NCBI GenBank assembly: GCA_004284765.1 | Contig: NQJD01000007.1 | Location: 60,001 to 92,000, forward strand | Direction of reading: 5' to 3' | From: Candidatus Electronema aureum | GTDB lineage: Bacteria; Desulfobacterota; Desulfobulbia; Desulfobulbales; Desulfobulbaceae | DNA length: 32,000 nucleotides | Shown here: in pieces, positions 3,001-29,071 of the stretch | Numbering within the stretch: the stretch's first letter is position 1 | How the letters are laid out: each line of letters opens with the position of its first letter | The notes under the pieces: generated by a model | Told to the model about the DNA's origin: nothing | The model's input: only the letters and a program-made list of their open reading frames with translations | Databases searched by the model: none | Translations under genes and position numbers: made by a program

Positions 3001-4545
3001 TTTGCTGGTGCCGGTGTACAAATCTCCACATTCTTTCTGGACAGTGCTGATGTTGCGAATTGAGTTATCTTTCCACCACTTAGAGCAAAACTGAAGACTG
3101 TGGTTCAACATCGGTCGCTGATGCGTAATTGCCGTGTCATTGGCAGGAAAGGTCTCCAAGCACTGGGTGATCGGCTGGCTCCAGTTGGCACCGTTCGGGT
3201 CTTTGTTCAGAATGGTGTCCAGCATATCCTGACATTGACCGGAGATTTGCAGGCCAGTCGCAGTGACAGCCAGCACCTCTAGGCGAGAGGTGTCATCGCT
3301 GCTATCAACCCGATCTTGGAGAAAAGGTAAATCGCTGTCCTCATATTTGGAGCCTCGAACACCGAGCGACAAATAACCAGCAGTGCCGTCCAATTTTACT
3401 TGCTTGATCATCCTCGAACCAGAACAACCCCGATGTTCACCGACCAGCACATTTTCATAATAATTGTGCTTGCCGCCAGTCAGAATCTTCTTCTCTACAT
3501 CAAACTTAGAGGCCATCGCCCAGTTAAGGAAATTGCCGCGCGCGACAAACGAAGTCACTTTTTTTGGTGTAGAAGTGTTGATAGTAAGACAGAGGTTATC
3601 AGCGCGGGTGTATTTTGTTCCAGTACCAGAGCAGGCTGCGGTGGCAGATGACGGGGCTGTTGCCAGACTCTCAAATGCACCTTGCCGCAGGCTCTTCCAT
3701 TTTGTCGTGTCTTTGCCCGGCACATTGCCGCTGTTGCTGTTGACCAAAGACTGATACAGAATCCCGTTATAAGTAACGATGCTGCCGATCGAATACGGCT
3801 CACTACTCATCCACGTATATTCGACCGGCACCCAGTCTGTTACACCCGTCTTGTCGGTGAGTTTTAGCCCGGTACTTGTACCACCAGCGGCGGTGTAATA
3901 AAGCTGCGGGCCGTACCAAGTAAAAGAATTTGCCGGATAAGTTATACCGCTTGCCCATTTGCTACGGCTGGGTGTGATACCACTGATGCCCAGCTTGTTC
4001 CACTCAACCCCGGTGCTTTTGTCGATGCTTGCGCCCGTCGATACTCCTGCTGTGGCTGCCTCATATATATTTCCGTAAGCCTGTACCCTGCTGCCAACAG
4101 CGTATGTGGTGCCGCTCGTCCACTCATCAGGAGGATATGCTTTCGTCCAAGTGTACCAAGTATCGCTTTTGAAATAACCGCCATAGACATACGCGGTGTC
4201 ATAGCCAGTGACAGTGGTGATCTTGGTGGTTGTGGTACTGCCACCCTGCGTTGAGACAGAGACAATGTCATAATCGCCATCCATGCAACGCTGATACGTC
4301 GCTTGGAGGGAGTTGTTAATCATCACCGGCGTTGTGCCATTAAAAATTTTTCCCTGCTTGCTGTAGGCTGCGTCCAGCATCGAGCCGGAGTTGTCTAACA
4401 CCATCAGCAGGTTGGGCTTGGCACCAGATGAAAGGAACGGAGGAATACCGACTCCTTCGCTGCATGTTTCAATAGCTCGCCCGATTGTTGGCTGTAGTGC
4501 TACTACAGCTAAAAAGGACAGGGCTGCATAACTTGTCTTTTTCAT
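1..4545 (-). CDS. pilY1: PilY1-like type IV pilus tip adhesin/biogenesis protein; 5' end complete, 3' end runs off the window (at least 1515 codons)
   Basis: Absent from the ORF track because no stop codon lies in the window. The reverse frame is open from the ATG (cat at 4543-4545, GGGAGA SD just upstream) to base 1. It has a signal peptide (MKKTSYAALSFLAVVALQP) and a VWA/MIDAS motif DNSGS at aa 51-55. C-terminal PilY1/PilC propeller motifs are WRLGDIIHSTPIVV, VYFGGNDGMLHAMN and GQEMWAYIPYN. It lies directly downstream of the pilX-like gene, as in fimU-pilVWXY1 operons. Confidence 0.88.
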   Translation of the reverse strand, partial: MKKTSYAALSFLAVVALQPTIGRAIETCSEGVGIPPFLSSGAKPNLLMVLDNSGSMLDAAYSKQGKIFNGTTPVMINNSLQATYQRCMDGDYDIVSVSTQGGSTTTTKITTVTGYDTAYVYGGYFKSDTWYTWTKAYPPDEWTSGTTYAVGSRVQAYGNIYEAATAGVSTGASIDKSTGVEWNKLGISGITPSRSKWASGITYPANSFTWYGPQLYYTAAGGTSTGLKLTDKTGVTDWVPVEYTWMSSEPYSIGSIVTYNGILYQSLVNSNSGNVPGKDTTKWKSLRQGAFESLATAPSSATAACSGTGTKYTRADNLCLTINTSTPKKVTSFVARGNFLNWAMASKFDVEKKILTGGKHNYYENVLVGEHRGCSGSRMIKQVKLDGTAGYLSLGVRGSKYEDSDLPFLQDRVDSSDDTSRLEVLAVTATGLQISGQCQDMLDTILNKDPNGANWSQPITQCLETFPANDTAITHQRPMLNHSLQFCSKWWKDNSIRNISTVQKECGDLYTGTSKNPAYAPSTLVPAYGAYICYGIYDKNITNPVQRAGYIGRCWRPAQSSMANCVPKPAVSLANGGCDFTAPATECTYSPDNKKPWFKNKAGYNYTCTSNKLTDCTTWTPLYQWDDGSGASCTVGATPRTISTPAGWDPTVNVDDCITQASIDYCTDTAVPEVIDPSDQAGDTTQTWNVPGVVADSGIIALMGGTNPLATMKGYIQQPTRPTGVIHSVKKDLRLGAMAFHYVGAATECSSSYVTPGITRYCPTGNRDGAQLIAQLKAGDDVVNASDPEYSGSKRLHVDDMAAAINTVRGTSWTPLGEALYNALGYYTQNDTFCMKKDSTGKCLDFCLQQDASGNCTNYALDTDPVQFWCQDNHILVISEGESTTDVHPDVVAFAASPTTVNQAAYFPKKETGDLIGDGTAEPAFTPGTSTPCGDKLFRSTYLDDMTWWGQHVWPIYKKRYILDPDGNQVPKQNIFTHVVTTGVLSDVGTGECNPKTLMEYAADKGGTDNYYPGENPQQLEDNLYAVLDDILSRASAGSAASVISSSRSGSGAVYQAVFWPKYEDKAKLDGALKNNKVSWVGDVHSLFVSSAGLMYEDTNGNGKLDPPADKQVLFYFSSAANRTRGCYDITGFYASSPTSPQCPGEPAKTATDPDPQCSGAKCVEINNIKYLWSANKRLAKMNVVTDRKIYTWNDANNDGKVDDGEQFLLKDLDSTKLAALNTIAANNNRGPVGNDFLTSADWETFAGYEARLLNETDAAYNTRRERGALDALIQWIQGVDSLSDESADNNGNGRIDTALRSRYFHKLDPDDLLADTWRLGDIIHSTPIVVAKPAEAYHYIYRDPTYRDFVEKWKGRRNMVYFGGNDGMLHAMNGGFYFENKGQFCCTDALDDSNGNCAVTPVNGSCGTGKAALGQEMWAYIPYNLQPHLKCLADKHYAHKYYVDQKPRIFDAQIFQPEAECADPTSADYKTKCVHPGGWGTILVGALRFGGAPIKANELNNNTADKRLFTSSFF

Positions 4546-4576: not shown

Positions 4577-5260
4577 TCATGGATAATTGCAGGCACCACT
4601 TGAACCAAGGACATGGCCGTATTGGATGCAGATTACTGATTCGCTGCCGTCCCGACCCACATGCTGCACGTTGATATCATAGACCAGCGTGGCTCCGCCG
4701 CTGCCCATTCCTTTACCAACACCCTCATAGCCTGCTGCCATCTGAAGGGCCGAGCCTTCGGTCAACTTGGTGTTGCCGCCAATGTTGATATTGGAATGAG
4801 GCTGATTGTTGGTTGCCACCGGATCAAATAGACCACTCGGAGCTGGGGCGGTGAAAACCGCTGGAAAAACAAGGTTGCGGTTCGTATCGCTGGGAATTGC
4901 GATACCATTCGGCGCGTAGTTTCTCCAAAATCCCAGTGAATTACCTTCAATTGCCAAATCGAATCCCGGTGCGCCCACCATCCGCATGACCGAATTAGCA
5001 GGATTAGCGGTATCGGTGGTGTTGGCCCTAAAACCAAGGCAGGCAACGCTCTGTTCCAGTGACTCTGAAGCCAGCTCTGTTGCCGCGTCTGCGCTGTAGA
5101 AGGTCTCTTTATGTAAGCGGTCATTCATAGCAATCCGCCATTCGATATCCGTGTTCTGGTTCACTGCAATCCCCAGCAGAGTGAGAACAAGAAGAATGAG
5201 TAAGGAGGCGACCAGTACAAAGCCTTCTTCGCCGCTTCGGCATTTTTTTCGCTTTTTCAT
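4577..5260 (-). CDS. pilX: PilX-like minor pilin / PilX N-terminal domain protein (227 aa)
   Basis: The ORF-track call 4577..5353 was trimmed to the internal ATG at 5258-5260, which has an AAAGAGG SD. The N-terminus MKKRKKCRSGEEG|FVLVASLLILLVLTLLGIAV matches the PilX_N pattern, and the gene sits between the pilV-like gene and pilY1. Confidence 0.6.
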   Translation of the reverse strand: MKKRKKCRSGEEGFVLVASLLILLVLTLLGIAVNQNTDIEWRIAMNDRLHKETFYSADAATELASESLEQSVACLGFRANTTDTANPANSVMRMVGAPGFDLAIEGNSLGFWRNYAPNGIAIPSDTNRNLVFPAVFTAPAPSGLFDPVATNNQPHSNINIGGNTKLTEGSALQMAAGYEGVGKGMGSGGATLVYDINVQHVGRDGSESVICIQYGHVLGSSGACNYP

Positions 5261-5273
5261 GGCGACCTCTTTG

Positions 5274-5771
5274 CTAATTTTTCTTTGCATTCTGTTTAAT
5301 GTAGTTAAACACTGCCAGCTCTTGCTCGCCAAGTCCTCTATCAACGGTGACAATCACTCGGATGTGTTTAGGTTTTTGCTCATCCTGCTCCGGCGTAACA
5401 TCAATTATGCTATTCATGGAACAATTTTTTGCAACATTCCAATACATTCTGTAGAGCGGCACGGTACCGCTACTATCGTCGCCGTCTGCACGCGCTGGAT
5501 TGCCAGCAGATGCAGGCTTACGGTCGTTCAGCCCGTTGCAACCATCGTTGTCAGTATCCTTAAGCTGGATGTAGTCTTGGCCGAGCAATAGCTCAATGCG
5601 GTCGGTTGCCCATGTTGCCCCGCTGGTGATGCTGTTAGCGGTGAGATTTTTTTTGATCACCGCAGACTGCATTCCAAAAAGACCGAGAATGCCGATGGTA
5701 AAAATTGCCATTGCCATCAGCGTTTCAATGACAGTGAAGCCGGTTTGACCGGTATTGCGTGTATTTTTCAT
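5274..5771 (-). CDS. pilV: PilV-like type IV minor pilin (165 aa)
   Basis: It has a prepilin leader and N-methylation motif (MKNTRNTGQTG|FTVIETLMAMAIFTIGILGLFGMQ). This is typical of PilV-type minor pilins and fits the operon context. Confidence 0.7.
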   Translation of the reverse strand: MKNTRNTGQTGFTVIETLMAMAIFTIGILGLFGMQSAVIKKNLTANSITSGATWATDRIELLLGQDYIQLKDTDNDGCNGLNDRKPASAGNPARADGDDSSGTVPLYRMYWNVAKNCSMNSIIDVTPEQDEQKPKHIRVIVTVDRGLGEQELAVFNYIKQNAKKN

Positions 5772-5773
5772 AG

Positions 5774-6475
5774 CTATAGCCCAACGTTGCGGAGTTCAAT
5801 GGAAGTAACGAGCAGCCGCCGATGAAAATGATCATTGGGCGGGTTGCTGGAGCCGTTGTTGAGACTTGCCCATGCCGTGCCAGAACTTGGTATATATTGT
5901 GTGGTGTCCGTATGCCGTGGGTCAGGATACGAGGCACGGATCAGGATAGAGAGCCGGACAATGCGGGTGTCAGCAATGTTTGTAGCCTCAGGTGGCGGAG
6001 TTCCGTTACCCTGAAGATATAAGAATTCGATACCATCCACGCCCTCGGCTATAGTTCTTGTCTGGCCGGGTCCGACTACTCCGGTTCCGATGTTGATCAG
6101 GGTCAGATTGCGGTCCAAATTATTGTTGTTTATTGAATACATAACTCGGTTCAACACCCATTGATTGGTGGTGCTGTCTCGGTCGCAATATTCAAAGAAA
6201 AATTCCTGAGATTTTTTGATCAGGATGCCGCCATTATCTTTATTGACTCTGCAAACACCTCCTGGATCATACCCAGCCATCCGTATATCCCTATTCATGA
6301 AATCAAGAACTGACCTGAGCTTCTGCTGCATCTCCGTCACTTGTTCCTGAACAGTGTATGACCGCTGCTGAATGGTGTACACACCATATATTCCACCAAT
6401 CACCATGCTGGAGATGGCCATTGAGACCATGATCTCAATCAGGGTGAATCCGTTTTTTTTTGGCTTCTTTTTCAT
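5774..6475 (-). CDS. pilW: PilW-like type IV minor pilin (233 aa)
   Basis: The N-terminus is MKKKPKKNG|FTLIEIMVSMAISSMVIGGIYGVY, followed by LRSVLDFMNRDIRMAGYDP, which matches the PilW signature ...RDIRMAGY. An AGGTG SD lies upstream. Confidence 0.7.
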   Translation of the reverse strand: MKKKPKKNGFTLIEIMVSMAISSMVIGGIYGVYTIQQRSYTVQEQVTEMQQKLRSVLDFMNRDIRMAGYDPGGVCRVNKDNGGILIKKSQEFFFEYCDRDSTTNQWVLNRVMYSINNNNLDRNLTLINIGTGVVGPGQTRTIAEGVDGIEFLYLQGNGTPPPEATNIADTRIVRLSILIRASYPDPRHTDTTQYIPSSGTAWASLNNGSSNPPNDHFHRRLLVTSIELRNVGL

Positions 6476-6515
6476 AATTCACCTGCTTTTGCTTGACGAT
6501 GCTTCCGCAGCCTGT

Positions 6516-7034
6516 TCAATCTTTGTCCCAAGATGTTCCGTTGAATCTTCTTACCTTGACAGTTCCGTATGTTGTTGTCGTGATGGCATAGCATACATCT
6601 TGATTTTGATTATGTAAGTACGTAGTGCCTTGATTTGCTGTTCCTGTAACTCCAAAAGTAATGTTTGTTTTGATCTCGGTGAATGATTCATTGTCCCATT
6701 TTTTGACTGCCTTTCCTCTGCCGTAATCAACATTTTCGTAATCGGACAGATTTTTTCTGAATTCCCCTGAGTCCCATTTTTTGTTATCATTGCTATCAAA
6801 ATAATAATACCCCGGGCTGACTGATGTAATAAATTTTACAGGAACTTTTTTGTTTTTCCTCACCGCCAGTAACCTCGCCTTTTGCATGTCCGCATATAAA
6901 TTTCTGGCCGCGTTTTTCAGTCGTTTCTCTGGCAGAGTGCGGAGAAAACTGGGTAACGATATTGCTGACAGTATTCCAATCAAGGCGATAACTACCATCA
7001 ACTCAACAAAGGAGAAACCAGCTTCAGTTCTCAT
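6516..7034 (-). CDS. GspH/FimT/FimU-family minor pilin, paralog B (172 aa)
   Basis: The N-terminus is MRTEAG|FSFVELMVVIALIGILSAISLPSFLRTLPEKRLKNAARNLYADMQKARL. The prepilin motif plus the conserved 'R...A...l...l..AR' region is characteristic of the GspH/FimT family. Confidence 0.75.
   Translation of the reverse strand: MRTEAGFSFVELMVVIALIGILSAISLPSFLRTLPEKRLKNAARNLYADMQKARLLAVRKNKKVPVKFITSVSPGYYYFDSNDNKKWDSGEFRKNLSDYENVDYGRGKAVKKWDNESFTEIKTNITFGVTGTANQGTTYLHNQNQDVCYAITTTTYGTVKVRRFNGTSWDKD
6888..7016. repeat. Copy B of a 129-nt direct repeat (5' coding region of the FimT-like paralogs)
   Basis: Hand alignment with 7441..7569 gives 103/129 identical bases and no gaps. Confidence 0.8.
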
Positions 7035-7053
7035 TTGTGCAGCATTAATTCCA

Positions 7054-7611
7054 TTATTCCCATGAAGAACCGCTGTATCTTCTTAATCGCACCGAGCCAA
7101 AATCTGTTGTCGTTGCAGCATAACAGACATCAGTGCTTTGATCTGTAAGAAAAACACTGGCGGCATCTGATGCACCTATCTTGCCAAATTTAATGTTATT
7201 CGCTATAGTACAGGCATTGGCAACTACTGTATTCCAAGCACAGCTACCTGTAGGAACACTGGCAAAACCATAACCAACTGCGCCAGTTTCAGACAAATTC
7301 CTTCTGAATTCACTTGCATCCCAGATACCGTTATCATTAATATCAAAATAATAAAAATCATTTTTATTACCTGTATTATCAACAAATATCATTCTGATAT
7401 CTCTGTTTTCTTTAACGGCCTGTAATCTTGCTCGTTGCAAGTCCGAATATAAATTCCTTGCCGCGTTTTTCAGTCGTTTTTCAGGTAAGCCTCTCAGAAA
7501 ACTTGGCAGGACTATTCCTGATAATATTCCAATTAAGGCAATAACTACCATCAGCTCGACAAAGGAGAACCCTGACTTGTCCTTCGCGTATCGTTTGATT
7601 CTTTCCGTCAT
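7054..7611 (-). CDS. GspH/FimT/FimU-family minor pilin, paralog A (185 aa); first gene of the minor-pilin operon
   Basis: The N-terminus is MTERIKRYAKDKSG|FSFVELMVVIALIGILSGIVLPSFLRGLPEKRLKNAARNLYSDLQRARL. An AAGGTG SD lies 8 nt upstream. It is paralogous to 6516..7034 over its whole length. Confidence 0.75.
   Translation of the reverse strand: MTERIKRYAKDKSGFSFVELMVVIALIGILSGIVLPSFLRGLPEKRLKNAARNLYSDLQRARLQAVKENRDIRMIFVDNTGNKNDFYYFDINDNGIWDASEFRRNLSETGAVGYGFASVPTGSCAWNTVVANACTIANNIKFGKIGASDAASVFLTDQSTDVCYAATTTDFGSVRLRRYSGSSWE
7441..7569. repeat. Copy A of a 129-nt direct repeat (5' coding region of the FimT-like paralogs)
   Basis: Hand alignment with 6888..7016 gives 103/129 identical bases and no gaps. 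Confidence 0.8.
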
Positions 7612-7812: not shown

Positions 7813-9204
7813 TTACAATCCGATATTCGCATCATCAGGCAGCTTCAATTTACCCAAAAGCGAAGGATAGCTGATCTCCAGCAGCTCGGCAGCCCGGCTC
7901 TTATTGCCGCCGGTGACCTCCATTGCTCGTTCAATTAGCCACTGTTCCACAATCTGTCGCCCTTTTTTAATCGATGAGGTACTCAACAGCAAGTCAAGGG
8001 GATGACCGTTCCTACGTCCCGCCAGCATTTTCGGTAAGTTATCCGGTTGAATTAGCCTATCGTCAGTCAGTAGCACGGCCCGTTCCAGCACATTTTCCAA
8101 TTCACGGACATTACCCGGCCAAGAATGAGTAAGCAACATCTGCAAAGCAGCCGGAGCCGCACCTTCAATCTCAGGCCGGTTCATGCTAATCGCAAATTTT
8201 TCAATAAAATGGTCACAGAGCGGTGGGATGTCGGCGATGCGCTCCCGAAGCGGTGGCAGATGAATATTGACCACATTCAGTCGATAAAAAAGGTCTTCCC
8301 TAAAGTGGCCTTGCCGAACTTCTTCGGTCAAGTCGCGAGCTGTAGCCGCGAGGATTCGTACATCAACCTTTCGGCTGACTGTTGCACCAACGCGCCGAAT
8401 ATCTTGCTCTTGCAAAACCCGGAGCAACTTAACCTGGATAGATAACGGCAGCTCGCCAATTTCATCCAAAAACAGAGTGCCGCTGTTGGCTTCCTCAAAC
8501 AGGCCTTTTCGATCCCTATCCGCGCCAGTGAAAGCGCCCCGGACATGGCCAAAAAACTCGCTTTCTATCAAATTTTCAGGAATACCACCGCAGTTGACCG
8601 CCAAAAAAGGATTGGCAGCTCTGCCACTTTTTTCGTGAATTCCCCGCGCGACCAGCTCTTTGCCGGTGCCGGATTCGCCGGTGATCAGCACGGTGGTGCT
8701 GTGCTTGGCCACTTTGTCGGCAAGCTGGAAAATCGCCTGCATAGCCTTACTGCTGCCGATCATTCCGCCCAGTCCAGCGGTTTTTTCCAACCCGGCTATC
8801 TTTTTTTTCAGAAAAATATTCTCCCGGCGCAACCGCTCACGCTCCTCGGCTTTTTTCAACACCAACACTACTTCATCGGTCTTGAAAGGCTTGGAGATGA
8901 AATCATAAGCTCCCTGCTTCATGGCCTCAATTGCAGTATCAACCGTGCCAAAAGCCGACATCATAATGATCACTGCCGAATGCTTGACTTCGACTGCGGC
9001 CTTGAGAAAGGAGATCCCATCCATTTCAGGCATTCTGATGTCGCAAAGGACAAAATTAACGACATTTGTTTGCAGCAATTCAAGTCCAGCCCGACCATGC
9101 GCAGCGGTTTCTACAGCATAACCTTCGCCCTTGAGCAAAGCAGAGAGCATGTGCCGCATGTTTTCTTCGTCGTCAATCACCAGCACCTTTGCTGTCTCAG
9201 TCAT
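7813..9204 (-). CDS. pilR: Sigma54-dependent response regulator, PilR/NtrC family (REC + AAA+ + Fis-type HTH)
   Basis: The REC domain shows VLVIDDE...CDIRMPEMDG, Walker A is GESGTGKE, and the sigma54-contact loop GAFTGA is present. A C-terminal HTH (NKSRAAELLEISYPSL) closes the protein. The start was moved from 9219 to the ATG at 9202-9204 because AAGGAGGG sits 5 nt upstream of it. The gene overlaps the kinase stop by 8 nt. Confidence 0.9.
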   Translation of the reverse strand: MTETAKVLVIDDEENMRHMLSALLKGEGYAVETAAHGRAGLELLQTNVVNFVLCDIRMPEMDGISFLKAAVEVKHSAVIIMMSAFGTVDTAIEAMKQGAYDFISKPFKTDEVVLVLKKAEERERLRRENIFLKKKIAGLEKTAGLGGMIGSSKAMQAIFQLADKVAKHSTTVLITGESGTGKELVARGIHEKSGRAANPFLAVNCGGIPENLIESEFFGHVRGAFTGADRDRKGLFEEANSGTLFLDEIGELPLSIQVKLLRVLQEQDIRRVGATVSRKVDVRILAATARDLTEEVRQGHFREDLFYRLNVVNIHLPPLRERIADIPPLCDHFIEKFAISMNRPEIEGAAPAALQMLLTHSWPGNVRELENVLERAVLLTDDRLIQPDNLPKMLAGRRNGHPLDLLLSTSSIKKGRQIVEQWLIERAMEVTGGNKSRAAELLEISYPSLLGKLKLPDDANIGL

Positions 9205-10672
9205 TATTCCCTCCTTCATCAGCTAAAGGCAGACAGATAGAAATGGTGCTGCCCTCGCCTGCTTTACTTTCCATTTTCATGAACCCGCCTGCGTTTTCAA
9301 CCATTGAGCGGGAAACCGACAACCCCAGTCCAGTGCCTTTGCCTATTTCCTTGGTTGTGTAAAAAGGATCGAAGACGGCAGCAAGCTGCTCCTCAGTAAT
9401 GCCAATGCCGTTGTCTTCAATGCGGATGCGCAAAAAATGCGGCTCAGACTGATCGGTGGACAGCACGATCTGCCCGTTATTTCGCTCAATACCGCTACTG
9501 ATCGCATCCGCACTATTAAGCAGGCAGTTGAGCAAAACTTGACGTAGCTGGTCGGGATCGATATTAATTCTGTCCTGCGCTGCCTCCGCTTGGACAGTCA
9601 ATTTAATCTGCTTGAACGCAGACTGCACCTGCACCATTTCTACCACGGAATCTAACAGCGCGTGGACAAAAAAAATCTCTGGTCTGCCTTTGGAGACTCT
9701 GGCACAATTCAACAATTGGCGGATAAGACCGCTCACTCGTTGCAATTCTTGATCGGCCCGACAAAGAAAATCCTGATTCTCCTCGCTCTGGCCAGAGCGA
9801 GCTAACAGGTCGAGATAGCCCTGAATCACCGCCAAGGGATTGCCGATTTCATGCGCCAACCCAGCGGCCATTTTTCCCACTGAAGCCAACTTTTCTGCCC
9901 GAATCATCTCCTGCTGCCGTTCCTGAAGCTGCCGATTAGCAACCTCCAGCTCGGCTACAGTTGTTCGCAAAATCGTCCTGTCTTGCTCGATTTTTGCCAA
10001 CATACTGTTCAAGCTGCTCGCCAGCTGGTTGAACTCGCTGCCAGAATGATCAGCGGCAAACCAGACAGCCTCCTGCTCAGTATGCCGATCAGCTAACTGC
10101 ATTAATCGCTCCACAGGCCGAACAATGAGCTTGGTCATCCTGAAAAAGCTGATCACGCCGAGTACCAGCAGATTGACAACTATATAGATAAAAACGATTT
10201 TCTCGGCTTGCCAGAGCGTGGTGAATAACGGCAGCAGCGAGCGCGTCACCGCAACTACGCCGATTATTTGGCCTTGCCGCAGCACCGGTCGTGCACTGGC
10301 TAAAAACGGTTGTTGCCCCCGCAACAAGTCCGCTAAAGAGGCTGAGGCGCGCATTGTCAGCCTGCCGGTCTGAACTGCTTCGGTCGCCGTCTCGGCTATC
10401 AGTGGCGGCAATTCAGTATGGATGTCGTCCCGTGGCAACATCATAATCTGCCCTGATTCTTCGCCGGGATAAAATTCAGTGAAAGAAAATGCCTGCTTCA
10501 GATATGCCTTTTCTGCTGTCAGCTGGTATGCAATATGAAGCAGCACCGCCTGATCACGCTCGGCCTCCCGCTGGAGGGCATCGCGTTTCCAGAACATAAG
10601 CAGCACCATATTCACCAGCAACATGGCGATGAGCAGTAGCGCGGCGACGGTCAAAATCAGTTTGGTTTTCAT
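9197..10672 (-). CDS. pilS: Sensor histidine kinase partner of PilR (2 TM, periplasmic domain, HAMP, HisKA, HATPase_c)
   Basis: TM1 is LILTVAALLLIAMLLVNMVLLMFW and TM2 is IVFIYIVVNLLVLGVISFF. The H-box is AAGLAHEIGNPL, the N-box is LLNCLLNSADA, G1 is DNGIGI and G2 is GTGLGLSVS. It is translationally coupled to pilR. Confidence 0.8.
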   Translation of the reverse strand: MKTKLILTVAALLLIAMLLVNMVLLMFWKRDALQREAERDQAVLLHIAYQLTAEKAYLKQAFSFTEFYPGEESGQIMMLPRDDIHTELPPLIAETATEAVQTGRLTMRASASLADLLRGQQPFLASARPVLRQGQIIGVVAVTRSLLPLFTTLWQAEKIVFIYIVVNLLVLGVISFFRMTKLIVRPVERLMQLADRHTEQEAVWFAADHSGSEFNQLASSLNSMLAKIEQDRTILRTTVAELEVANRQLQERQQEMIRAEKLASVGKMAAGLAHEIGNPLAVIQGYLDLLARSGQSEENQDFLCRADQELQRVSGLIRQLLNCARVSKGRPEIFFVHALLDSVVEMVQVQSAFKQIKLTVQAEAAQDRINIDPDQLRQVLLNCLLNSADAISSGIERNNGQIVLSTDQSEPHFLRIRIEDNGIGITEEQLAAVFDPFYTTKEIGKGTGLGLSVSRSMVENAGGFMKMESKAGEGSTISICLPLADEGGNND

Positions 10673-10766: not shown

Positions 10767-10803
10767 GTGACAAAAATTGTCAGTGCGTGACAAAAATTGT
10801 CAG
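10767..10803. promoter_or_regulatory. Two tandem copies (20-nt period) of GTGACAAAAATTGTCAG, each a TGACA-N5-TGTCA palindrome; candidate enhancer-binding-protein (PilR) UAS
   Basis: Exact 17-nt copies lie at 10767-10783 and 10787-10803. A third TGACA half-site begins at 10828, 40 nt after the second. The copies lie about 118-154 nt upstream of the sigma54 -24 element of pilA. Confidence 0.6.
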
Positions 10804-10919: not shown

Positions 10920-10935
10920 TGGCACAGTTCTTGCT
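10920..10935 (+). promoter_or_regulatory. Sigma54 promoter of pilA
   Basis: TGGCACAGTTCTTGCT has a perfect TGGCAC -24 element, correct GG-N10-GC spacing and a TTGCT -12 element. It lies about 80 nt upstream of the pilA ATG. Confidence 0.8.
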
Positions 10936-11016: not shown

Positions 11017-11451
11017 ATGAAACTGAATCAATTGAAAATGAAAGCCAACGAGAAAGGCTTCACCCTGATCGAGCTGATGATCGTTATCGCCATCATCGGT
11101 ATCTTGGCGGCAGTAGCAATTCCTAACTTCATTGCGTATCGTGATAAATCGTATTGTTCAGCTGCTGAATCGGATGCAAATGCGATTGCTGCTTCCTTGG
11201 CAGATTATTATGCCATTCCTACACATACAGCTGCAATCACAGGTGCTATTGCCAACGGCGCAACACAGCTTCTCGGTATGAAAGTATCACAATTGTCAGG
11301 AACTAATACCGCTGGTATTTCTGGAACAATAGATAGGTTAGTTATTACTGTAACTGACGGCTCTAAACGTTGCCCTACAGACTACCGGAAGGCTATTGAT
11401 GATTGGAGTGATACTGCTGCTGGTGGTGTTTTCACAAAGACAATGGAATAA
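11017..11451 (+). CDS. pilA: Type IVa major pilin PilA (144-aa prepilin, 130-aa mature)
   Basis: The ORF-track call 10858..11451 was trimmed to the ATG at 11017, which has a GGAGG SD at 11007-11011. The N-terminus is MKLNQLKMKANEKG|FTLIELMIVIAIIGILAAVAIPNFIAYR, with Glu5. The mature protein has two Cys (C33, C105). An alternative start at 11038 would give a 7-aa leader. Confidence 0.9.
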   Translation: MKLNQLKMKANEKGFTLIELMIVIAIIGILAAVAIPNFIAYRDKSYCSAAESDANAIAASLADYYAIPTHTAAITGAIANGATQLLGMKVSQLSGTNTAGISGTIDRLVITVTDGSKRCPTDYRKAIDDWSDTAAGGVFTKTME

Positions 11452-11484
11452 AGTTTCAAGTAGCAACGTCAAGTGAAGCAAAAG

Positions 11485-11519
11485 GAGGTGCATTTCTGCA
11501 CCTCTTTCTCTATTTTTTA
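11485..11519 (+). terminator. Rho-independent terminator after pilA
   Basis: The stem is GAGGTGCA (11485-11492) with TGCACCTC (11497-11504), and the loop is TTTC. It is followed by the T-rich tract tttctctatttttt. Confidence 0.75.
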
Positions 11520-11640
11520 TTGGGGCAAACCGATTGATCAGTCACATTTAACCTTGTGATGATAGATAGTTAAGACAGCGTATCAACATTTTTGCCCCAC
11601 CACCCTGTTTTTCATATAACTATTTGTTTTTAGAATAAAT

Positions 11641-13743
11641 TTGAAAAAATTCAACCGTATGAATAAATCTATAGTTAACTGGAATCATTCATTCGTATTT
11701 TTTTTAATTGCATGCATTGTTTTTGTTACATACTCTAACACTTTCAATGCGTCATGGCAGCTCGATGATGAGCCAAATATAACCAACAACAGCAAAATAC
11801 ATGTTACCACGTTAAATTTTCATCAAATAAACAATACGTTTAGAGCAAATCCAATTGTCAATGATAAACTTTACCGCCCTCTTCCGTGCCTAACCTTTGG
11901 TCTAAATTGGTATGTAGGGCAAGGTAATGTATTTGGATATCATATAGTTAATCTTGCAATCCATATTTTGACCACTTGGTTTCTTTTTTTATCTCTGCAT
12001 CTGCTCCTGCACATCCATTATCAAAAAAAATATCCGGCGCAATTTTTTTTCACCGCTGCTTTGTTTGGCACACTATTTTGGGCATTGGCTCCCATTCAGA
12101 CCCAAGCTGTTACATATATAGTTCAGCGCATGGCATCAATGGCGGCAATGTTCACTATTATTGCCATCTACGCTTATTTGCGGGGGAGAACAGAAAGAAA
12201 ATACGCATGGTTCATCCTCTGTTTACTTTCTTTTTTTGCCGCTTTAGCCAGTAAAGAAAATGCTATTCTTTTGCCCCTTTCCTTGGTACTTATTGAATTT
12301 GCCTTTTTCCCTCATCGGATCACAAAAAAACAGCTATTTCGCTTGATATTTAGCAGTCTCATAATCTTGATAGCGGGCTTTCTTTTTGTTCGCTACGGCT
12401 TAGGTCTCGTTCCGTTTAAGCTATCCAATCCCCTAAGCTTCCTTGACAGCTACGCAAACCGTTCCTTTTCATTTAGTGAGCGCATCCTTACTCAGCCTCG
12501 CATTGTGCTGATGTATCTTTCTCAGATATTTCTGCCAGTGGTAGAACAATTTTCCATCGAGCATGATATTGTTATGTCAAGCTCCCTATTTTTTCCTTGG
12601 ACAACATTGCCTGCAATGTTAACAATTTTACTGTCTATATTAGCAGCTATTTTTTTCTTGAAAAAATATCCACTAATCTGCTTCCCTGTTCTTTTTTTCT
12701 TCCTAAATCATGTCGTAGAATCAACTATTTTGCAATTAGAGCTGATTTTTGAACACCGCAATTACCTCCCTTCATTTTTTCTTTTCCTTCCTATAGGCGT
12801 TCTAATTGCCCGCATTTTATACAGTAATCCGAAGCAGTCGGCTTTCCGACAGGTCACGGCTGCGTTGTGTTCAATTTTTTTTCTGATTGTTTTTGGTCAA
12901 GCGACCTATACTCGTAATTTAGCTTGGGCAACAGAATATACCTTATGGGCAGATGCCATTCGCAAAGCTCCTAACAGTTCAAGAGCAGCACATCATTTGG
13001 GTAAATGGCATTATTATTCTAAGAACTACAATCACGCAATTTATTATTTTCAATTAGCATTACGCAGCACAGATAAAGCGCCAACACCGAAATATAGCAA
13101 ATACCTTGTTCTTAATGCATTAGGATTAAGCTATGCTGCTCTTGGAAAACACAATCAGGCAATCCTGTATCTTAATCAGTGTTTAGAATTAGGCGATTAT
13201 GCAGAATGTTTACAGAACAGATCCGTTGTGTATGCTGACAAAAAAATGTATAAGCAGGCATTGACCGATGCTACACAGTTAGCCAATTCTGTTACTGATT
13301 ACATTTATCAATTAAATGTAGCCATCGTTGCTTTTGAAGCCGGAAATTATGCAACTTCTTATGGGTATCTAAAAAAAATAATCAATTTTTCTCTTGAAAA
13401 CCATCAAGTCATGCATTTAGCTGGTCTTTTGCTGATGAAAGAAGGTGCCTATCCAAATAGCTTATTTTTTTTAAAGCAGGCAAATAAGCTCGCGCCTGAT
13501 GAAATCAGTTATCAGCTTACTCTCGCTGCTGCATATCATGTGGATCATCAACCTGCGTTAACAGAAACGGTTCTGAATGATATATTCAAAAAATACTCGC
13601 TACCTGTCATTACCAATGCTCTAAAGGAGTTCAGACGGCAGAATAGCTTCGTTATCAATGCAGTCAGCTTCATCGAACGTCGTATTGACAGCATGATCAA
13701 AACTAATGCGATAAACCATGAACAACAACCACCTGCACCGTAA
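11641..13743 (+). CDS. Polytopic GT-C-type membrane protein with C-terminal TPR repeats, TMTC/DUF1736-like putative protein O-glycosyltransferase
   Basis: The ORF-track start is TTG at 11641, and an ATG at 11659 is a possible alternative. Loop-1 motifs are WQLDDEPNITNN and YRPLPCLTFGLNWYVGQGNVFGYHIVNLAIHIL. These match the FVFDD..AI..N / YRPL..LTF.LNY....YH..N..H pattern of TMTC O-mannosyltransferases. The protein has at least 9 hydrophobic segments followed by about 250 aa of TPR-like repeats. The gene is strongly AT-rich. Confidence 0.65.
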   Translation: MKKFNRMNKSIVNWNHSFVFFLIACIVFVTYSNTFNASWQLDDEPNITNNSKIHVTTLNFHQINNTFRANPIVNDKLYRPLPCLTFGLNWYVGQGNVFGYHIVNLAIHILTTWFLFLSLHLLLHIHYQKKYPAQFFFTAALFGTLFWALAPIQTQAVTYIVQRMASMAAMFTIIAIYAYLRGRTERKYAWFILCLLSFFAALASKENAILLPLSLVLIEFAFFPHRITKKQLFRLIFSSLIILIAGFLFVRYGLGLVPFKLSNPLSFLDSYANRSFSFSERILTQPRIVLMYLSQIFLPVVEQFSIEHDIVMSSSLFFPWTTLPAMLTILLSILAAIFFLKKYPLICFPVLFFFLNHVVESTILQLELIFEHRNYLPSFFLFLPIGVLIARILYSNPKQSAFRQVTAALCSIFFLIVFGQATYTRNLAWATEYTLWADAIRKAPNSSRAAHHLGKWHYYSKNYNHAIYYFQLALRSTDKAPTPKYSKYLVLNALGLSYAALGKHNQAILYLNQCLELGDYAECLQNRSVVYADKKMYKQALTDATQLANSVTDYIYQLNVAIVAFEAGNYATSYGYLKKIINFSLENHQVMHLAGLLLMKEGAYPNSLFFLKQANKLAPDEISYQLTLAAAYHVDHQPALTETVLNDIFKKYSLPVITNALKEFRRQNSFVINAVSFIERRIDSMIKTNAINHEQQPPAP

Positions 13744-14899
13744 ACAAACCCTTCTCTGGCTTGCCGTCCTGCTGCTTGCCGTGACAGGTTTCACTGTCGC
13801 CCTTTATTCCGCCCACAGCCATTATCAGAACTACACCGACCCACTTTACAGCAGCTTTTGTGCCATCAGCCAAGCCATCAACTGTGACACGGTCGCGCAA
13901 AGTCCGTGGTCAGTTATATTTGCAATCCCGGTCGCGTGGTGGGGTGTGCTGTTCCATGTTTTCCTCCTGCTCATCCTCCTGACAGAAGACCGTCGCAATC
14001 TTGCAGCTTGGCAGGGATTCTTCTTTGTGATGCTCATCGCCTCCGCTGTCACACTGGGGCTGGCGGCCATCGCCGTCACGCAGATAAAATCGCTTTGCCT
14101 TGTTTGTCTTGTCACCTACGCCATCACCTTTGCCCTGACCTACACTTGCTGGATTGGCAGACGGCGGTGCAAAGAGGCTGTTGAAAAAAGCACCGAAGGA
14201 TTCAGCGCAACATTCAGCAAGAAAGACATGCTGCGCAATTACAACGTCGCCGCCGGGGTGTTCTGCGTCAGCCTGCTGCTGCTATATGGCCTGATGCCCC
14301 GCTACTGGCTGCTTGCTCCGGCGCAGGCGGACATCAGTGGCCTGCCGCAGGGCGTGACTGCTGACGGTCATCCTTGGATCGGAGCGGAAAAACCGCAGCT
14401 GACCATAACGCAATTTTCTGATTACCAGTGCTTTCAATGTAGCAAAATGTATTTCTTGTTACGCCAGTTCTTGATTGCGCACCCCGACACGCTGCGTTTT
14501 GTTCATCGTCATTATCCGATGGATCATAAAGTCAATTCAGTCATCGTGCCGGATGCGTTTCACGAAGGTTCAGGAGATTTGGCGAAAGTTGCCATCTTAG
14601 CCGCAATACGGAATAAATTCTGGTCAACTAATGAGCTGCTCTACTCGATGATGCGCAGCGGCGGCAAGGTCAAAGAAATTTCTCTCAAAGAACTTGCGGA
14701 GAAAACTGGACTTGATAACAACGAACTTTCCGCTGCCTTGTCGCATCTGGCCATAGCAGAAATGCTCCGCCGGGACATCTGGGACGGCATGAAGCTGGGT
14801 ATTACCGGCACACCGGCTTTTGAAATTAACGGCAAAGTCTATCAAGGTCATATTCCTGCCGAAATCCTCAAACAGATTGCCGAGCTGCCGAAAAAATGA
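13718..14899 (+). CDS. VKOR-family quinone reductase fused to a DsbA-like thioredoxin domain (disulfide bond formation)
   Basis: The N-terminal half has 4-5 TM segments with a loop Cys pair (FCAISQAINC, C48/C56) and a membrane CxxC (SLCLVCL, 14096-14107). The C-terminal soluble domain carries FSDYQCFQCSK (CxxC at 14429-14440). The gene overlaps the upstream gene by 26 nt. Confidence 0.8.
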   Translation: MNNNHLHRKQTLLWLAVLLLAVTGFTVALYSAHSHYQNYTDPLYSSFCAISQAINCDTVAQSPWSVIFAIPVAWWGVLFHVFLLLILLTEDRRNLAAWQGFFFVMLIASAVTLGLAAIAVTQIKSLCLVCLVTYAITFALTYTCWIGRRRCKEAVEKSTEGFSATFSKKDMLRNYNVAAGVFCVSLLLLYGLMPRYWLLAPAQADISGLPQGVTADGHPWIGAEKPQLTITQFSDYQCFQCSKMYFLLRQFLIAHPDTLRFVHRHYPMDHKVNSVIVPDAFHEGSGDLAKVAILAAIRNKFWSTNELLYSMMRSGGKVKEISLKELAEKTGLDNNELSAALSHLAIAEMLRRDIWDGMKLGITGTPAFEINGKVYQGHIPAEILKQIAELPKK

Positions 14900-16587
14900 C
14901 TTCGCAGCAAGCAAGCTTCGTCGGTGACCACAAGAGCATCCGCTGGCTGTCGGCCGTTTGTCTTGCGCTGGCTGTCGTCTGTGTCGCGCTCTTAGCCTGC
15001 ACCCCGCCCTTTGATCGTGATGGTCTAATTCACCATCTCCAAATTCCCAAGCTCTACCTTCAGCACGGCAGCATCTACGAGATTCCCGATCTCGTTTTTT
15101 CCTACTACCCCATGAATTTAGATATGCTCTACATGGGAGCCTTATGGCTTGGCAGCGACATCTTGCCTAAATATATCCACATGGCTTTTGCTTTCGCCAC
15201 GGCCCTGCTGCTTTTTTTTCATCTAAAAAAACGGATAGCCAGCACCTATGCGTGGCTGGGAGCGGTCTTTTTCCTCAGCGTTCCGGTCATTGTCAAGCTC
15301 TCGGTGACGGTTTACGTTGACCTTGGCTTGGTCTTTTTCAGCACCGCTGCTTTGCTGTTGCTTTTTCGTTGGTTAGAGACAAAACGATGGCAGCACCTGC
15401 TGCTGGCAGGATTCTGCGGCGGCTTGGGTATCGGCACCAAATATAACGGGCTATTAGTGCTCTTTATCCTGACTTTCATGGTTCCGGTGCTATGGATCAG
15501 AAGTCAGGTGTTGCATCAGAGAGCTGCTGGCCCGGCTGTGAAGGCGGCTGTGCTGTTCTGCCTTGCCGCGCTGCTGGCCGCCTCGCCGTGGTTGATCAGA
15601 AATGCGGTCTGGACCGGCAACCCGATTTATCCACTCTACAACGGCTTTTTTAACCGAGCTGCTGCGTCTGCTGAAGATACTGCAACCAGTGATGGTGAAG
15701 CGCAGGGTGGCGGGGTTCGGGGCGTGTTCGCCACTCGCCATGTTTTATACGGAGAAAATATTTGGCAGCTGATCCTGCTACCGGTGAGGATTTTTTTTCA
15801 TGAAGCGCAGGATGACGATCCTCGCTATTTTGATGGCAGACTCAATCCCTTTCTTCTGATTTTACCTATCCTTGCCTTGCTTCGTAGTATACGACAAGCA
15901 AACAAACAAACTCAACTTGAGCAAATAGCCTTGGCCGCATTCTGCTTGCTCTATTTTCTTTTCGCCTTCAACACCGGGGTACTGCGCATTCGCTATCTGG
16001 TGCCGATGGTGCCATTCCTGGTGATTTTATCCATGTACGGGTTATATCATATTGAAATGCTCACGCCAAAACACGTGGCAAAACAAAGCATTGCTCTTGC
16101 AATCTGGCTGCTACCGATAACCCTGATGCTGATTTGGAACGGTCATTATCTTTATGGCCAGTTCAAAAAAATTTCTCCGTTGAGCTATATCAGTGGACGG
16201 TTAAGCAGGGATGAATATTTAGCCAAACAACTTCCCGAATATCAGGTAATGCAATACGCTAACAAGCATTTACCTGCTTCAGCCAAAATTCTTTGTATTT
16301 TTATGGGCTGGCGGGGCTATTATTTGGAGAAGCCGCATTCATTTGACTCTCACGGCAATCCAAATGGCTTGATAGCTTTGCTGAACAAGCCCGGAACAAC
16401 AGCAGAACAAATTGGACAATGGCTAAAAGAAAAAGGCTTCAATTATTTGCTGATTCGGCGGGATTTGCTCTACAATCAGCTGCGCAGCGAAGATATCAAC
16501 GCCCAGCAGCTCTGGGTTGAGCTGGAACAAAAGCATTTGCTGCCGCTCTCATCCAATCAGGAATATACTCTATATCAGGCCTTCTGA
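14896..16587 (+). CDS. GT-C fold glycosyltransferase (family 39 / ArnT / PMT_2-like), 563 aa
   Basis: Its start overlaps the upstream stop (ATGA at 14896-14899). The first loop carries FDRDGLIHH. About 11 hydrophobic segments have PMT_2-like spacing (...GIGTKYNGLLVLFIL...), followed by a C-terminal soluble domain of about 130 aa. Confidence 0.6.
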   Translation: MTSQQASFVGDHKSIRWLSAVCLALAVVCVALLACTPPFDRDGLIHHLQIPKLYLQHGSIYEIPDLVFSYYPMNLDMLYMGALWLGSDILPKYIHMAFAFATALLLFFHLKKRIASTYAWLGAVFFLSVPVIVKLSVTVYVDLGLVFFSTAALLLLFRWLETKRWQHLLLAGFCGGLGIGTKYNGLLVLFILTFMVPVLWIRSQVLHQRAAGPAVKAAVLFCLAALLAASPWLIRNAVWTGNPIYPLYNGFFNRAAASAEDTATSDGEAQGGGVRGVFATRHVLYGENIWQLILLPVRIFFHEAQDDDPRYFDGRLNPFLLILPILALLRSIRQANKQTQLEQIALAAFCLLYFLFAFNTGVLRIRYLVPMVPFLVILSMYGLYHIEMLTPKHVAKQSIALAIWLLPITLMLIWNGHYLYGQFKKISPLSYISGRLSRDEYLAKQLPEYQVMQYANKHLPASAKILCIFMGWRGYYLEKPHSFDSHGNPNGLIALLNKPGTTAEQIGQWLKEKGFNYLLIRRDLLYNQLRSEDINAQQLWVELEQKHLLPLSSNQEYTLYQAF

Positions 16588-28537: not shown

Positions 28538-29071
28538 ATGAGTGAAAACGGACAAAAAGGCCTATTGATAGTCTATACCGGCAACGGCAAGGGCAAGACC
28601 ACTGCCGCCCTCGGCTTGACCTTGCGCGCTCTCGGTCACGGTCACCGGGTTTGCTTTATTCAGTTCATCAAAGGCAGCTGGAAGTACGGCGAGCTGACCG
28701 CAGTGGAACGTTTTGCCGATTTGCTCGACTTTCATGTGATGGGCCGTGGTTTCACTTGGAAATCCGATGATCTGGAAAAAGATGCCGCTGCTGCCCGTGA
28801 GGGCTGGGAACTGGTACAAAAGATCATCGCCGAAGGAAGACATCAGCTGGTAGTTTTGGACGAGCTGACCTACTTGGTCAGGTACAACATGCTGTCTGAA
28901 CAGGAAATCTTAGACGTGCTGGCGCGACGCGGGCCGTCTGTGCATGTGGTGGTTACGGGCCGAGGAGCTGGAGAACAGCTCATGCAGGCTGCTGATTTAG
29001 TCACCGAGCTGCGCGAGGTTAAGCACCCCTACCGACAAGGAATCAAGGCGCAGAAGGGAATTGAATTCTAA
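28538..29071 (+). CDS. cobO: Cob(I)yrinic acid a,c-diamide / cob(I)alamin adenosyltransferase (CobO/BtuR type)
   Basis: It shows GLLIVYTGNGKGKTTAALGLTLRALGHGHRVCFIQFIKG...GE and VLDELTY, and has the typical length of about 177 aa. Confidence 0.9.
   Translation: MSENGQKGLLIVYTGNGKGKTTAALGLTLRALGHGHRVCFIQFIKGSWKYGELTAVERFADLLDFHVMGRGFTWKSDDLEKDAAAAREGWELVQKIIAEGRHQLVVLDELTYLVRYNMLSEQEILDVLARRGPSVHVVVTGRGAGEQLMQAADLVTELREVKHPYRQGIKAQKGIEF

Follow-up and report, generated by a model that had tools for sequence, protein, structure and literature searches.

What do three tightly packed genes behind the major pilin gene of a freshwater cable bacterium do, and is the pilin their substrate? The question is raised by a stretch of 32,000 nucleotides (contig NQJD01000007.1 of assembly GCA_004284765.1, positions 60,001 to 92,000 of the forward strand; hereafter the window) from Candidatus Electronema aureum, in which pilA is followed by genes that we call g1, g2 and g3. 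Comparative sequence analysis and structure modelling identify g2 as a VKOR-DsbA fusion and point to g1 and g3 as glycosyltransferases of the GT-C type, g1 with an additional TPR domain. Together with the conserved position of these genes next to pilins in related bacteria, this leads us to a reading that we favour and hold to be fairly likely, namely that the island is dedicated to O-glycosylation and disulfide maturation of the pilin and is built from two sub-modules. The g1 product is 100% identical to CDV28_10763 of Ca. Electronema aureum, and the contig of the window is also present in Logan run SRR14559660.

Gene arrangement behind pilA

All four genes lie on the plus strand and were read as open reading frames from the window: pilA at 11017-11451, g1 at 11659-13743 (with an alternative TTG start at 11641), g2 at 13718-14899 and g3 at 14896-16587. 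Inspection of the sequence confirmed the arrangement described in an earlier sequence-only reading of this DNA, i.e., three co-oriented genes that follow pilA and its terminator and are joined by two overlaps. The g1/g2 overlap comprises 26 nucleotides, from the ATG of g2 at 13718 to the TAA stop codon of g1 at 13741-13743, and the g2/g3 junction is an ATGA at 14896-14899. The plus-strand block ends at 16587, because the genes after g3 (plsY, asd, prs, and corA) run in the opposite direction.

A predicted GT-C enzyme with a TPR domain

The g1 protein has 694 amino acids, about 11 transmembrane helices and, in its AlphaFold2 model, a C-terminal TPR superhelix at residues ~430-690. The full-length model (pLDDT 84.6) retrieved only TPR proteins from the PDB with Foldseek (consensus TPR, the TPR domain of OGT), and therefore residues 1-428 were modelled and searched alone. 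The 12 best PDB matches of this N-terminal model (pLDDT 80, pTM 0.86) are all GT-C enzymes, including STT3, Pmt4, ArnT, PglB, AglB, EmbB, ALG9, and EmbA, with Foldseek probabilities of 0.99-1.00 and TM-scores of 0.33-0.49; matches outside the GT-C group had probabilities below 0.35. The motifs DD..N, YRPL, LTF, YH, N, and H are all present, and D36, D37, N40, R73, P74, Y94, H95, N98, and H102 are invariant in 27 g1 homologues of 36-66% identity. The acidic motif D36-D37 follows the first transmembrane helix, in loop 1, as in GT-C enzymes. Because the N-terminal model matches GT-C enzymes and the loop motifs are invariant, g1 is, as judged from the model, a GT-C enzyme with a TPR domain. This domain is probably located on the periplasmic side of the membrane, given the odd number of transmembrane helices and PhoA data for the Pseudomonas protein TfpW.

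The sequence-only reading had gone further and called g1 a TMTC-type enzyme, a claim that survives in part. Measured against the TMTC motif set M1-M7 of Eisenhaber et al. 2021 (PMC7801869), motifs M1 (DD), M2 (YRPL..LTF.LN), M4 (K199-E-N201), and M7 (E365-H-R367-N-Y369-LPS) are invariant in the g1 homologues; M3 (RxD), M5 (DW), and M6 (PxxP) are not evident in g1. DUF1736, which models the loop between transmembrane helices 7 and 8, gave no match to g1 at E<=0.01. The term TMTC-type thus holds at the level of motifs and of the GT-C/TPR architecture alone, because DUF1736 does not match.

Several observations weigh against the GT-C assignment of g1. In Pfam, g1 has strong TPR matches, and its PMT_2 score of 17.5 bits is below the cut-off of 26.1. 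Pfam searches with the 27 homologues matched 57 families, of which the 25 most widely matched are TPRs and other helical repeats, with neither DUF1736 nor PMT_2 among them. A PDB sequence search with g1 likewise returned TPR proteins only. Aligning the g1 N-terminus with a 60-sequence g3 alignment by hhalign yielded a probability of 40%, pairing the GSKEN and GTKYN regions, and the Foldseek E-values amount to just 1e-3 to 5e-2. Sequence-level support for g1 as a GT-C enzyme is accordingly weak. It was proposed beforehand that profile searches would place both g1 and g3 in GT-C families; this is true of g3, and the placement of g1 comes from its structure model.

These same data bear on the suggestion that g1 is a non-catalytic TPR scaffold for protein contacts in pilus assembly, which would agree with TPRs being the only domains above the Pfam threshold and with the published interpretation of the cable-bacteria 'TPR proteins' as mediators of such contacts (PMC10580974). 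A scaffold would leave the ~430 N-terminal residues to be explained, an 11-helix membrane domain with exclusively GT-C enzymes among its 12 best model matches, as well as the invariance of the DD, KEN, and E-H-R-x-Y motifs across the 27 homologues. We regard a purely structural role of g1 as highly improbable.

A VKOR-DsbA fusion

In agreement with the sequence-only reading, the 393-amino-acid product of g2 is a membrane VKOR domain (a core of four transmembrane helices plus a fifth) fused to a DsbA-like thioredoxin domain. The Pfam scores are 77.1 bits for VKOR (cut-off 27.5), 47 bits for DSBA, and 50 bits for Thioredoxin_4, and the PDB sequence matches comprise VKORL (6wv9), Synechococcus VKOR-Trx (4nv6), and DsbA-like chains. 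Three cysteine pairs (C48/C56, C127/C130, and C238/C241) are invariant in 22 homologues, as are the C238-F-Q-C241 and the cis-proline motif G364-T365-P366 of the DsbA domain. On sequence grounds the identity of g2 as VKOR-DsbA is unambiguous. The fifth hydrophobic segment was located by hydropathy at residues 175-193, and a total of five such segments is consistent with a periplasmic DsbA domain, as in Synechococcus VKOR-Trx.

A second predicted GT-C enzyme

The third gene encodes 563 amino acids with a C-terminal soluble domain of ~150 residues. It exceeds the Pfam cut-offs for both PMT (33.0 bits, cut-off 22.7) and PMT_2 (34.0 bits, cut-off 26.1), which bears out its earlier description as a GT39/ArnT-like GT-C protein, and databases name it ArnT family, GT39, or phospholipid carrier-dependent glycosyltransferase. 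R41-D42 (in loop 1, after the first transmembrane helix), K182-Y183-N184, and R364/R366 are conserved to at least 95% in 60 orthologues. A PDB sequence search with g3 gave no match.

Most pilins of the cluster share a cysteine pair

PilA is a type IVa major prepilin of 144 amino acids with a Pfam N_methyl match and a weak match to the N-terminus of PilA_Myxo; the mature protein has 130 residues and, as had been noted before, two cysteines, Cys33 and Cys105. It is reported to be the most abundant protein of Ca. Electronema aureum (PMC10580974). Exactly two cysteines are present in 89 of 101 distinct pilins encoded in such clusters, and all 51 pilins from the genome loci have Cys33 and a second cysteine at position 95-114. 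The family consensus reads ...YRNKAFCS... around Cys33 and ...ITITVTD.S.RCP... around the second cysteine, so that the RCP motif comes after the threonine-rich strand ITITVTD. By these sequence features the cluster pilins are a distinct family, in which a bond between Cys33 and the RCP cysteine would connect the C-terminal strand with the N-terminal helix at its end.

Linkage to pilin genes in relatives

Related loci were collected by a g2 profile scan of one genome per species, of which the best 80 of 211 hits, from Desulfobulbales and Desulfobacterales, were analyzed; their six-frame open reading frames were searched with g1 and g2 profiles plus g3 and pilA. Carriers include Desulfobulbus rhabdoformis, Desulfoprunum, Desulfofustis, Desulforhopalus, Desulfosarcina, Desulfonema, Desulfosudis, Desulfobacterium N47, and an Olavius symbiont. 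The recurrent order is pilA, g1 (in one to three copies), g2, and g3. A pilA-like gene lies upstream of g2 in 47 of 57 informative loci and g1 immediately 5' of g2 in 40 of these 57. Downstream of g2, g3 follows within 300 nucleotides in 52 of 67 loci, often with an ATGA overlap, and anywhere downstream in 62; a different GT-C gene occupies the position immediately 3' of g2 in six of the 67. Five loci lacking g1 (L020, L022, L067, L071, and L075) have pilA 150-330 nucleotides upstream of g2. Linkage of the trio with pilA, as anticipated from the window, is thus conserved across two classes of Desulfobacterota.

The reverse test, in which an independent sample of metagenomes was scanned with a profile of the g1 N-terminus (80 loci), revealed a pilin gene directly 5' of g1 in 47 of 61 informative loci. 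In these metagenome loci g2 is found downstream of g1 in 28 and is absent from 18 with enough flanking sequence. Two metagenome-assembled genomes (MAGs) contain two to three g2 copies, each beside its own pilA where the flank allows this to be seen (L050 and L053; L031 and L067), although binning artefacts are possible in such MAGs and one short locus (L065, 2 kb) could not show a pilA.

The GT-C positions around g2 are interchangeable (L053 8225-9953, L027 11152-12891, L033, L046, L082, and L084). In L053, a g3-like gene that is split into two open reading frames takes the usual position of g1, and in several loci the gene after g2 weakly matches the profile of the g1 transmembrane domain, not g3. 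One locus, L014 (CALNYB010000016.1), is labelled 'Cyanobacteriota bacterium HOU_bin.0041' and carries a g2 that is 71% identical to that of the window, followed by g3; this contig is most likely a mis-binned Electrothrix-like contig. A role of the module in the electrical conduction of cable bacteria was considered and rejected, because the module is found just as much in Desulfobacterales that are not cable bacteria.

Two sub-modules and associated sugar genes

The sequence-only reading had treated the trio as a single unit, and this did not hold. Co-directional sugar genes spanning 6-10 kb separate pilA-g1 from g2-g3 in E. halotolerans, Electronema sp. JC, and Electrothrix gigas; in Electrothrix sp. 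YB6, g2-g3 lie 370 kb from pilA-g1; and the two pairs recombine independently. Identities to the window proteins are mosaic even among close relatives. For E. nielsenii F5 they are 55% (pilA), 37% (g1), 94% (g2), and 92% (g3); for Electronema sp. KV 49%, 36%, 47%, and 71%; and for Electronema sp. PJ 43% (g1), 44% (g2), and 76% (g3), with no pilA found. The GC content is 0.43 in pilA, 0.38 in g1, 0.52 in g2, and 0.49 in g3, as compared to 0.50-0.56 in neighbouring genes, and the minor-pilin genes upstream (5274-7611; 0.44) are likewise well below their neighbours. The low GC content of pilA, g1, and the minor pilins, taken with the mosaic identities, points to horizontal exchange or diversifying selection of surface parts of the pilus. 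Because both identity to close relatives and GC content are low in comparison to g2-g3, pilA-g1 (sometimes with g2) behaves in these comparisons as an exchangeable cassette and g2-g3 as a stable part. Exchange of this kind resembles the islands of P. aeruginosa that combine a pilin with accessory genes.

Sugar genes occur with the module in many relatives. A GT2 protein of ~300 amino acids with one or two C-terminal transmembrane helices (hydropathy scan) is encoded directly after g3 in 15 of 56 loci and within the flank in 26. Its architecture resembles that of polyprenyl-phosphate-sugar synthases, and the presence of such genes beside g3 is an indirect hint that g1 and g3 may draw on a polyprenyl-phosphate sugar donor. 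The 6-10 kb inserts of the three cable bacteria encode GT4, GT2, methyltransferases, a UDP-GlcNAc 2-epimerase, an AsnB-like protein, and LPG_synthase_TM, and rmlB/rmlC-like genes are located upstream of pilA in the same three. The LPG_synthase_TM (flippase-like) gene lies right before g2 in cable bacteria. Among the annotated genes of the window and of the loci inspected, none had DprE1/DprE2 or phosphoribosyltransferase domains, for which no dedicated search was run. In Electrothrix gigas AU1_5 (L167 15029-16816), a gene of 595 amino acids with no Pfam match on record is situated between tandem g1 copies and methyltransferase/GT2 genes, and the equivalent position in Electronema sp. JC (L012 3828-5612) is held by a 594-amino-acid protein with a weak PMT_2 match; the 595-amino-acid gene may be a further GT-C.

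Generic-looking sugar genes of this kind in cable bacteria would also suit an enzyme that acts on a non-protein acceptor such as lipid A, the core of lipopolysaccharide (LPS), or exopolysaccharide. It could be asked whether g3, and perhaps g1, is ArnT/GtrC-like and does not modify the pilin at all, the more so as databases name g3 'ArnT family' or '4-amino-4-deoxy-L-arabinose transferase-like' and three-component systems of GT2, flippase, and GT-C commonly decorate LPS (PMC11194591). However, ArnT-type names are generic labels for PMT_2-type proteins, PMT and PMT_2 are models of protein O-mannosyltransferases, and both the translational coupling of g3 to a protein-folding catalyst and its conserved place beside pilin genes are more in keeping with a protein substrate. 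A non-protein acceptor therefore seems to us quite unlikely.

The following points weigh against a pilin-dedicated module. Between pilA and g1 stands a strong terminator, and the window scan found no sigma-54 site before g1. An upstream pilin is lacking in 14 of the 61 informative g1 metagenome loci, and g1 has more than 5000 matches, making for a large family. In the E. aureum window, neither a polyprenyl-phosphate-sugar synthase nor a flippase is encoded beside the trio. The 370-kb separation in Electrothrix sp. YB6 belongs here as well, as do the host-like GC content and vertical-looking inheritance of g2-g3, which are expected of a housekeeping system.

An alternative is that g2-g3, and possibly g1, are general machinery for periplasmic disulfide formation and O-glycosylation, with the adjacency to pilA being an ancestral gene order. 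In cable bacteria in which the pair is away from pilA, g2 and g3 remain coupled; they follow the host lineage in GC content and identities; and VKOR homologues substitute for DsbB as the general oxidant in several lineages (PMC11208910). The PilY1-like protein encoded nearby, with at least 40 cysteines, would need such oxidation too. Against a housekeeping role, the gene order that includes pilA persists in two classes at protein identities of only ~40%, pilA directly abuts g2 where g1 is missing, and, binning artefacts aside, the g2 copies of multi-copy MAGs are each found by their own pilA where the flank allows. In addition, the detached g2-g3 pair of Electrothrix gigas (L015) is followed by a pilC/T2SSF gene as identified by Pfam, and open reading frames of ~412 amino acids homologous to this gene occupy the corresponding position in five other loci, including L013 and L014 (BLAST cluster). 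Transferases encoded next to pilA in Pseudomonas and Acinetobacter are pilin-specific and general ones are unlinked, which also counts against this explanation. We consider general machinery to be unlikely, though it is the main rival of our reading. Of the dedicated pilin maturation module proposed at the outset, the linkage to pilA and the GT-C placement of g1 and g3 stand, and its indivisibility does not.

Transcription signals and neighbouring genes

Divergent from pilA, on the minus strand, are the genes of a two-component regulator pair, pilR (7813-9219; Pfam Sigma54_activat, Response_reg, HTH_8) and pilS (9197-10672; HisKA, HATPase_c), with PilR being a sigma-54 activator. A sigma-54-type -24/-12 promoter (TGGCAC-N5-TTGCT, 10920-10935, plus strand) lies 82 nucleotides 5' of the pilA ATG and is the single match to the consensus within the window. 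Further upstream on the same strand, at 10767-10803, are two perfect 17-bp direct repeats, GTGACAAAAATTGTCAG, which sit 117-153 bp upstream of the -24 element. Each repeat is an inverted repeat (TGACA-N7-TGTCA), and two exact copies compare with 0.01 expected. These putative PilR binding sites look like a PilR upstream activating sequence for pilA.

An intrinsic terminator follows pilA at 11482-11519 on the plus strand, with an 11-bp stem (11482-11507), a 4-nucleotide loop, and a T-run; the region contains 21 terminator-like sites versus 7.8 expected from shuffled sequences. A hairpin with a T-run is found in the intergenic region after pilA in at least 34 of 45 loci of relatives. This count is a lower bound, because the script, which required the T-run to be nearer to the stem, missed the terminator of the window itself, where the T-run begins a few bases past the stem. 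Ahead of g1, a sigma-70-like sequence at 11609-11636 is a pattern match alone. An Rfam scan of the window detected no RNA family.

The other pilus genes of the window are on the minus strand. A PilY1-like giant protein (1-4545; 2139 amino acids in full) runs past the start of the window; its longest open stretch inside the window (1522 amino acids) contains 40 cysteines, close to the roughly 39 counted previously, and its weak match to the propeller model of PilY1 spans positions 1-60 of that model, up to where the window ends. The same protein has a weak match to the carbohydrate-binding family CBM_5_12 at residues 244-283. Near this gene lie those for PilX (4577-5353) and four minor pilins (5274-7611). 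All of these products, the PilY1-like protein included, are possible further substrates of the module. Upstream of the pilS/pilR-pilA block, nine Desulfobacterales loci (L029, at 1387-2577, and eight more) encode a LarC-type nickel-insertion protein (PF01969), together with recurring genes for PgpA, signal peptidase I, and aspartate carbamoyltransferase. Although the fibres of cable bacteria have a nickel cofactor, these loci are from non-cable species and the neighbourhood is probably plain synteny. Elsewhere in the window, an open reading frame of 550 amino acids (30259-31911, plus strand) has no Pfam match at E<=0.01; it adjoins genes for a cNMP-binding/DUF4388 protein (29068-30201) and a GGDEF-EAL protein (25728-28250).

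Proposed function

From these features we infer the following enzymatic steps, along with their substrates, the type of sugar donor, and the membrane topology. pilA would be transcribed from its own PilR/sigma-54 promoter, with most transcripts ending at its own hairpin, and g1-g2-g3 would be expressed at a lower level, from read-through transcripts or a weak separate promoter. The prepilin would insert into the inner membrane with its globular domain toward the periplasm, where the TPR domain of g1 may dock the pilin while the DD loop moves a sugar from a polyprenyl-phosphate donor onto pilin serine or threonine residues. The DsbA domain of g2 is predicted to form the disulfide between Cys33 and Cys~105, stapling the C-terminal strand to the N-terminal helix, and would be re-oxidized within the same polypeptide via the loop cysteines and the CXXC of VKOR, with electrons passing to menaquinone. 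The ArnT/PMT-like g3, presumably translationally coupled to g2, could attach a further sugar to the first one, to different sites, or to other proteins of the pilus. In this scheme, pilA-g1 would represent a pilin type with its cognate transferase, variable and horizontally exchanged, and g2-g3 the conserved part.

If correct, the pilin-dedicated reading predicts, for strict anaerobes exposed to sulfide, that an entire pilin family needs a disulfide between helix and strand, introduced by an enzyme linked to menaquinone. It would turn the 'TPR proteins' of cable-bacteria pilA clusters into glycosyltransferases and provides a prediction for PilA of Ca. Electronema aureum that can be tested by mass spectrometry.

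A more far-reaching version, which we put forward as speculative and rather doubtful, is that the island is a counterpart of maturation in the endoplasmic reticulum (ER) for a single filament subunit, in which TMTC-like and PMT-like O-glycosyltransferases work with a VKOR-driven disulfide catalyst. The g2 and g3 proteins might then be physically coupled, disulfide stapling and glycosylation of threonine-rich strands might be ordered, and the cassette pilA-g1(-g2) might be swapped to evade phages or predators. Were such an ER-like system real, the dominant envelope protein of cable bacteria would be a heavily glycosylated, possibly methyl-sugar-bearing, disulfide-locked pilin.

Comparison with known systems

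Pilin-specific glycosylation islands have so far been studied in detail chiefly in Pseudomonas, Acinetobacter, and Neisseria. Our search of the literature on VKOR and pilins, TfpW, bacterial TMTC, and PilA, VKOR, or DsbA of cable bacteria returned no description of the four-gene cassette, in agreement with the sequence-only reading, which had known of none. The cluster drawn around pilA of Electrothrix by Geelhoed et al. (PMC10580974) includes 'TPR proteins' as well as a 'phospholipid carrier-dependent glycosyltransferase'; that the former contain a GT-C domain was not recognized there, nor were the VKOR-DsbA fusion and glycosylation of the pilin.

Among systems that share single parts with the cassette, the eukaryotic O-mannosyltransferases TMTC1-4 (GT-C/PMT clan; DUF1736/CAZy GT105) have in common with g1 the GT-C domain of 11 transmembrane helices, the lumenal or periplasmic TPRs, and motifs M1, M2, M4, and M7, but DUF1736 does not match g1, and M3, M5, and M6 are not evident in it. 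Like Synechococcus VKOR-Trx (3KP9/4NV6), g2 has a loop cysteine pair, a CXXC in the fourth transmembrane helix, and a fifth helix, and would share its quinone-dependent re-oxidation; its fused domain, however, is DsbA-like (CFQC, helical insert) and not a plain thioredoxin. In contrast to both VKOR-Trx and the actinobacterial VKOR/DsbA pairs, g2 belongs to an operon for a type IV pilin in strictly anaerobic Gram-negative bacteria and is translationally coupled to a GT-C gene. A link between VKOR and pili of another type is described for Actinomyces, where a VKOR-MdbA pathway is needed for the assembly of sortase pili (PMC5478893).

TfpO/PilO and PglL (Wzy_C) are comparable as accessory proteins that are encoded next to pilA and glycosylate pilin in the periplasm. 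TfpO/PilO-type genes belong to variable 'pilin islands' exchanged between strains (bioRxiv 10.1101/150227). These enzymes nevertheless have another fold and transfer a pre-assembled undecaprenyl-diphosphate-linked oligosaccharide, whereas GT-C enzymes use a polyprenyl-phosphate-monosaccharide. The GT2 gene after g3 in many relatives and LPG_synthase_TM before g2 in cable bacteria resemble parts of the three-component GtrA/B/C and ArnC/ArnT systems, but here the presumed acceptor is pilin instead of LPS, and the E. aureum window has neither GT2 nor flippase.

The closest functional precedent for g1, by analogy, is TfpW, the pilin D-arabinofuranosyltransferase of P. aeruginosa group IV strains (Pa5196/PA7), with which sugar-synthesis genes are sometimes clustered. 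TfpW has 646 amino acids, is encoded immediately downstream of pilA, has 11 transmembrane helices, a periplasmic C-terminal TPR domain, and a DDx motif in periplasmic loop 1, models on ArnT, and is required for pilin arabinosylation (bioRxiv 10.1101/2020.04.19.049825). Compared by description, not by sequence, g1 equals this architecture point for point, and it too lies just 3' of a pilin gene (with a gap of 190-208 nucleotides in the window, and in the 47 metagenome loci counted above). In contrast to TfpW, g1 often occurs as two to three tandem copies, belongs to anaerobic Desulfobacterota, and was not seen to carry the YX6PFX7P motif on inspection by eye; the sugar genes seen here are of the rmlB/C-like, GT2, GT4, methyltransferase, and 2-epimerase types; and g1 precedes a VKOR-DsbA fusion and a second GT-C, which are reported for no TfpW locus. 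The finding would hence extend the TfpW-type combination of GT-C and TPR to anaerobic Desulfobacterota and add two conserved partners that no report has placed next to a pilin gene. The four-gene block is probably a dedicated, so far undescribed pilin-finishing kit, a variant of the kits known from Pseudomonas.

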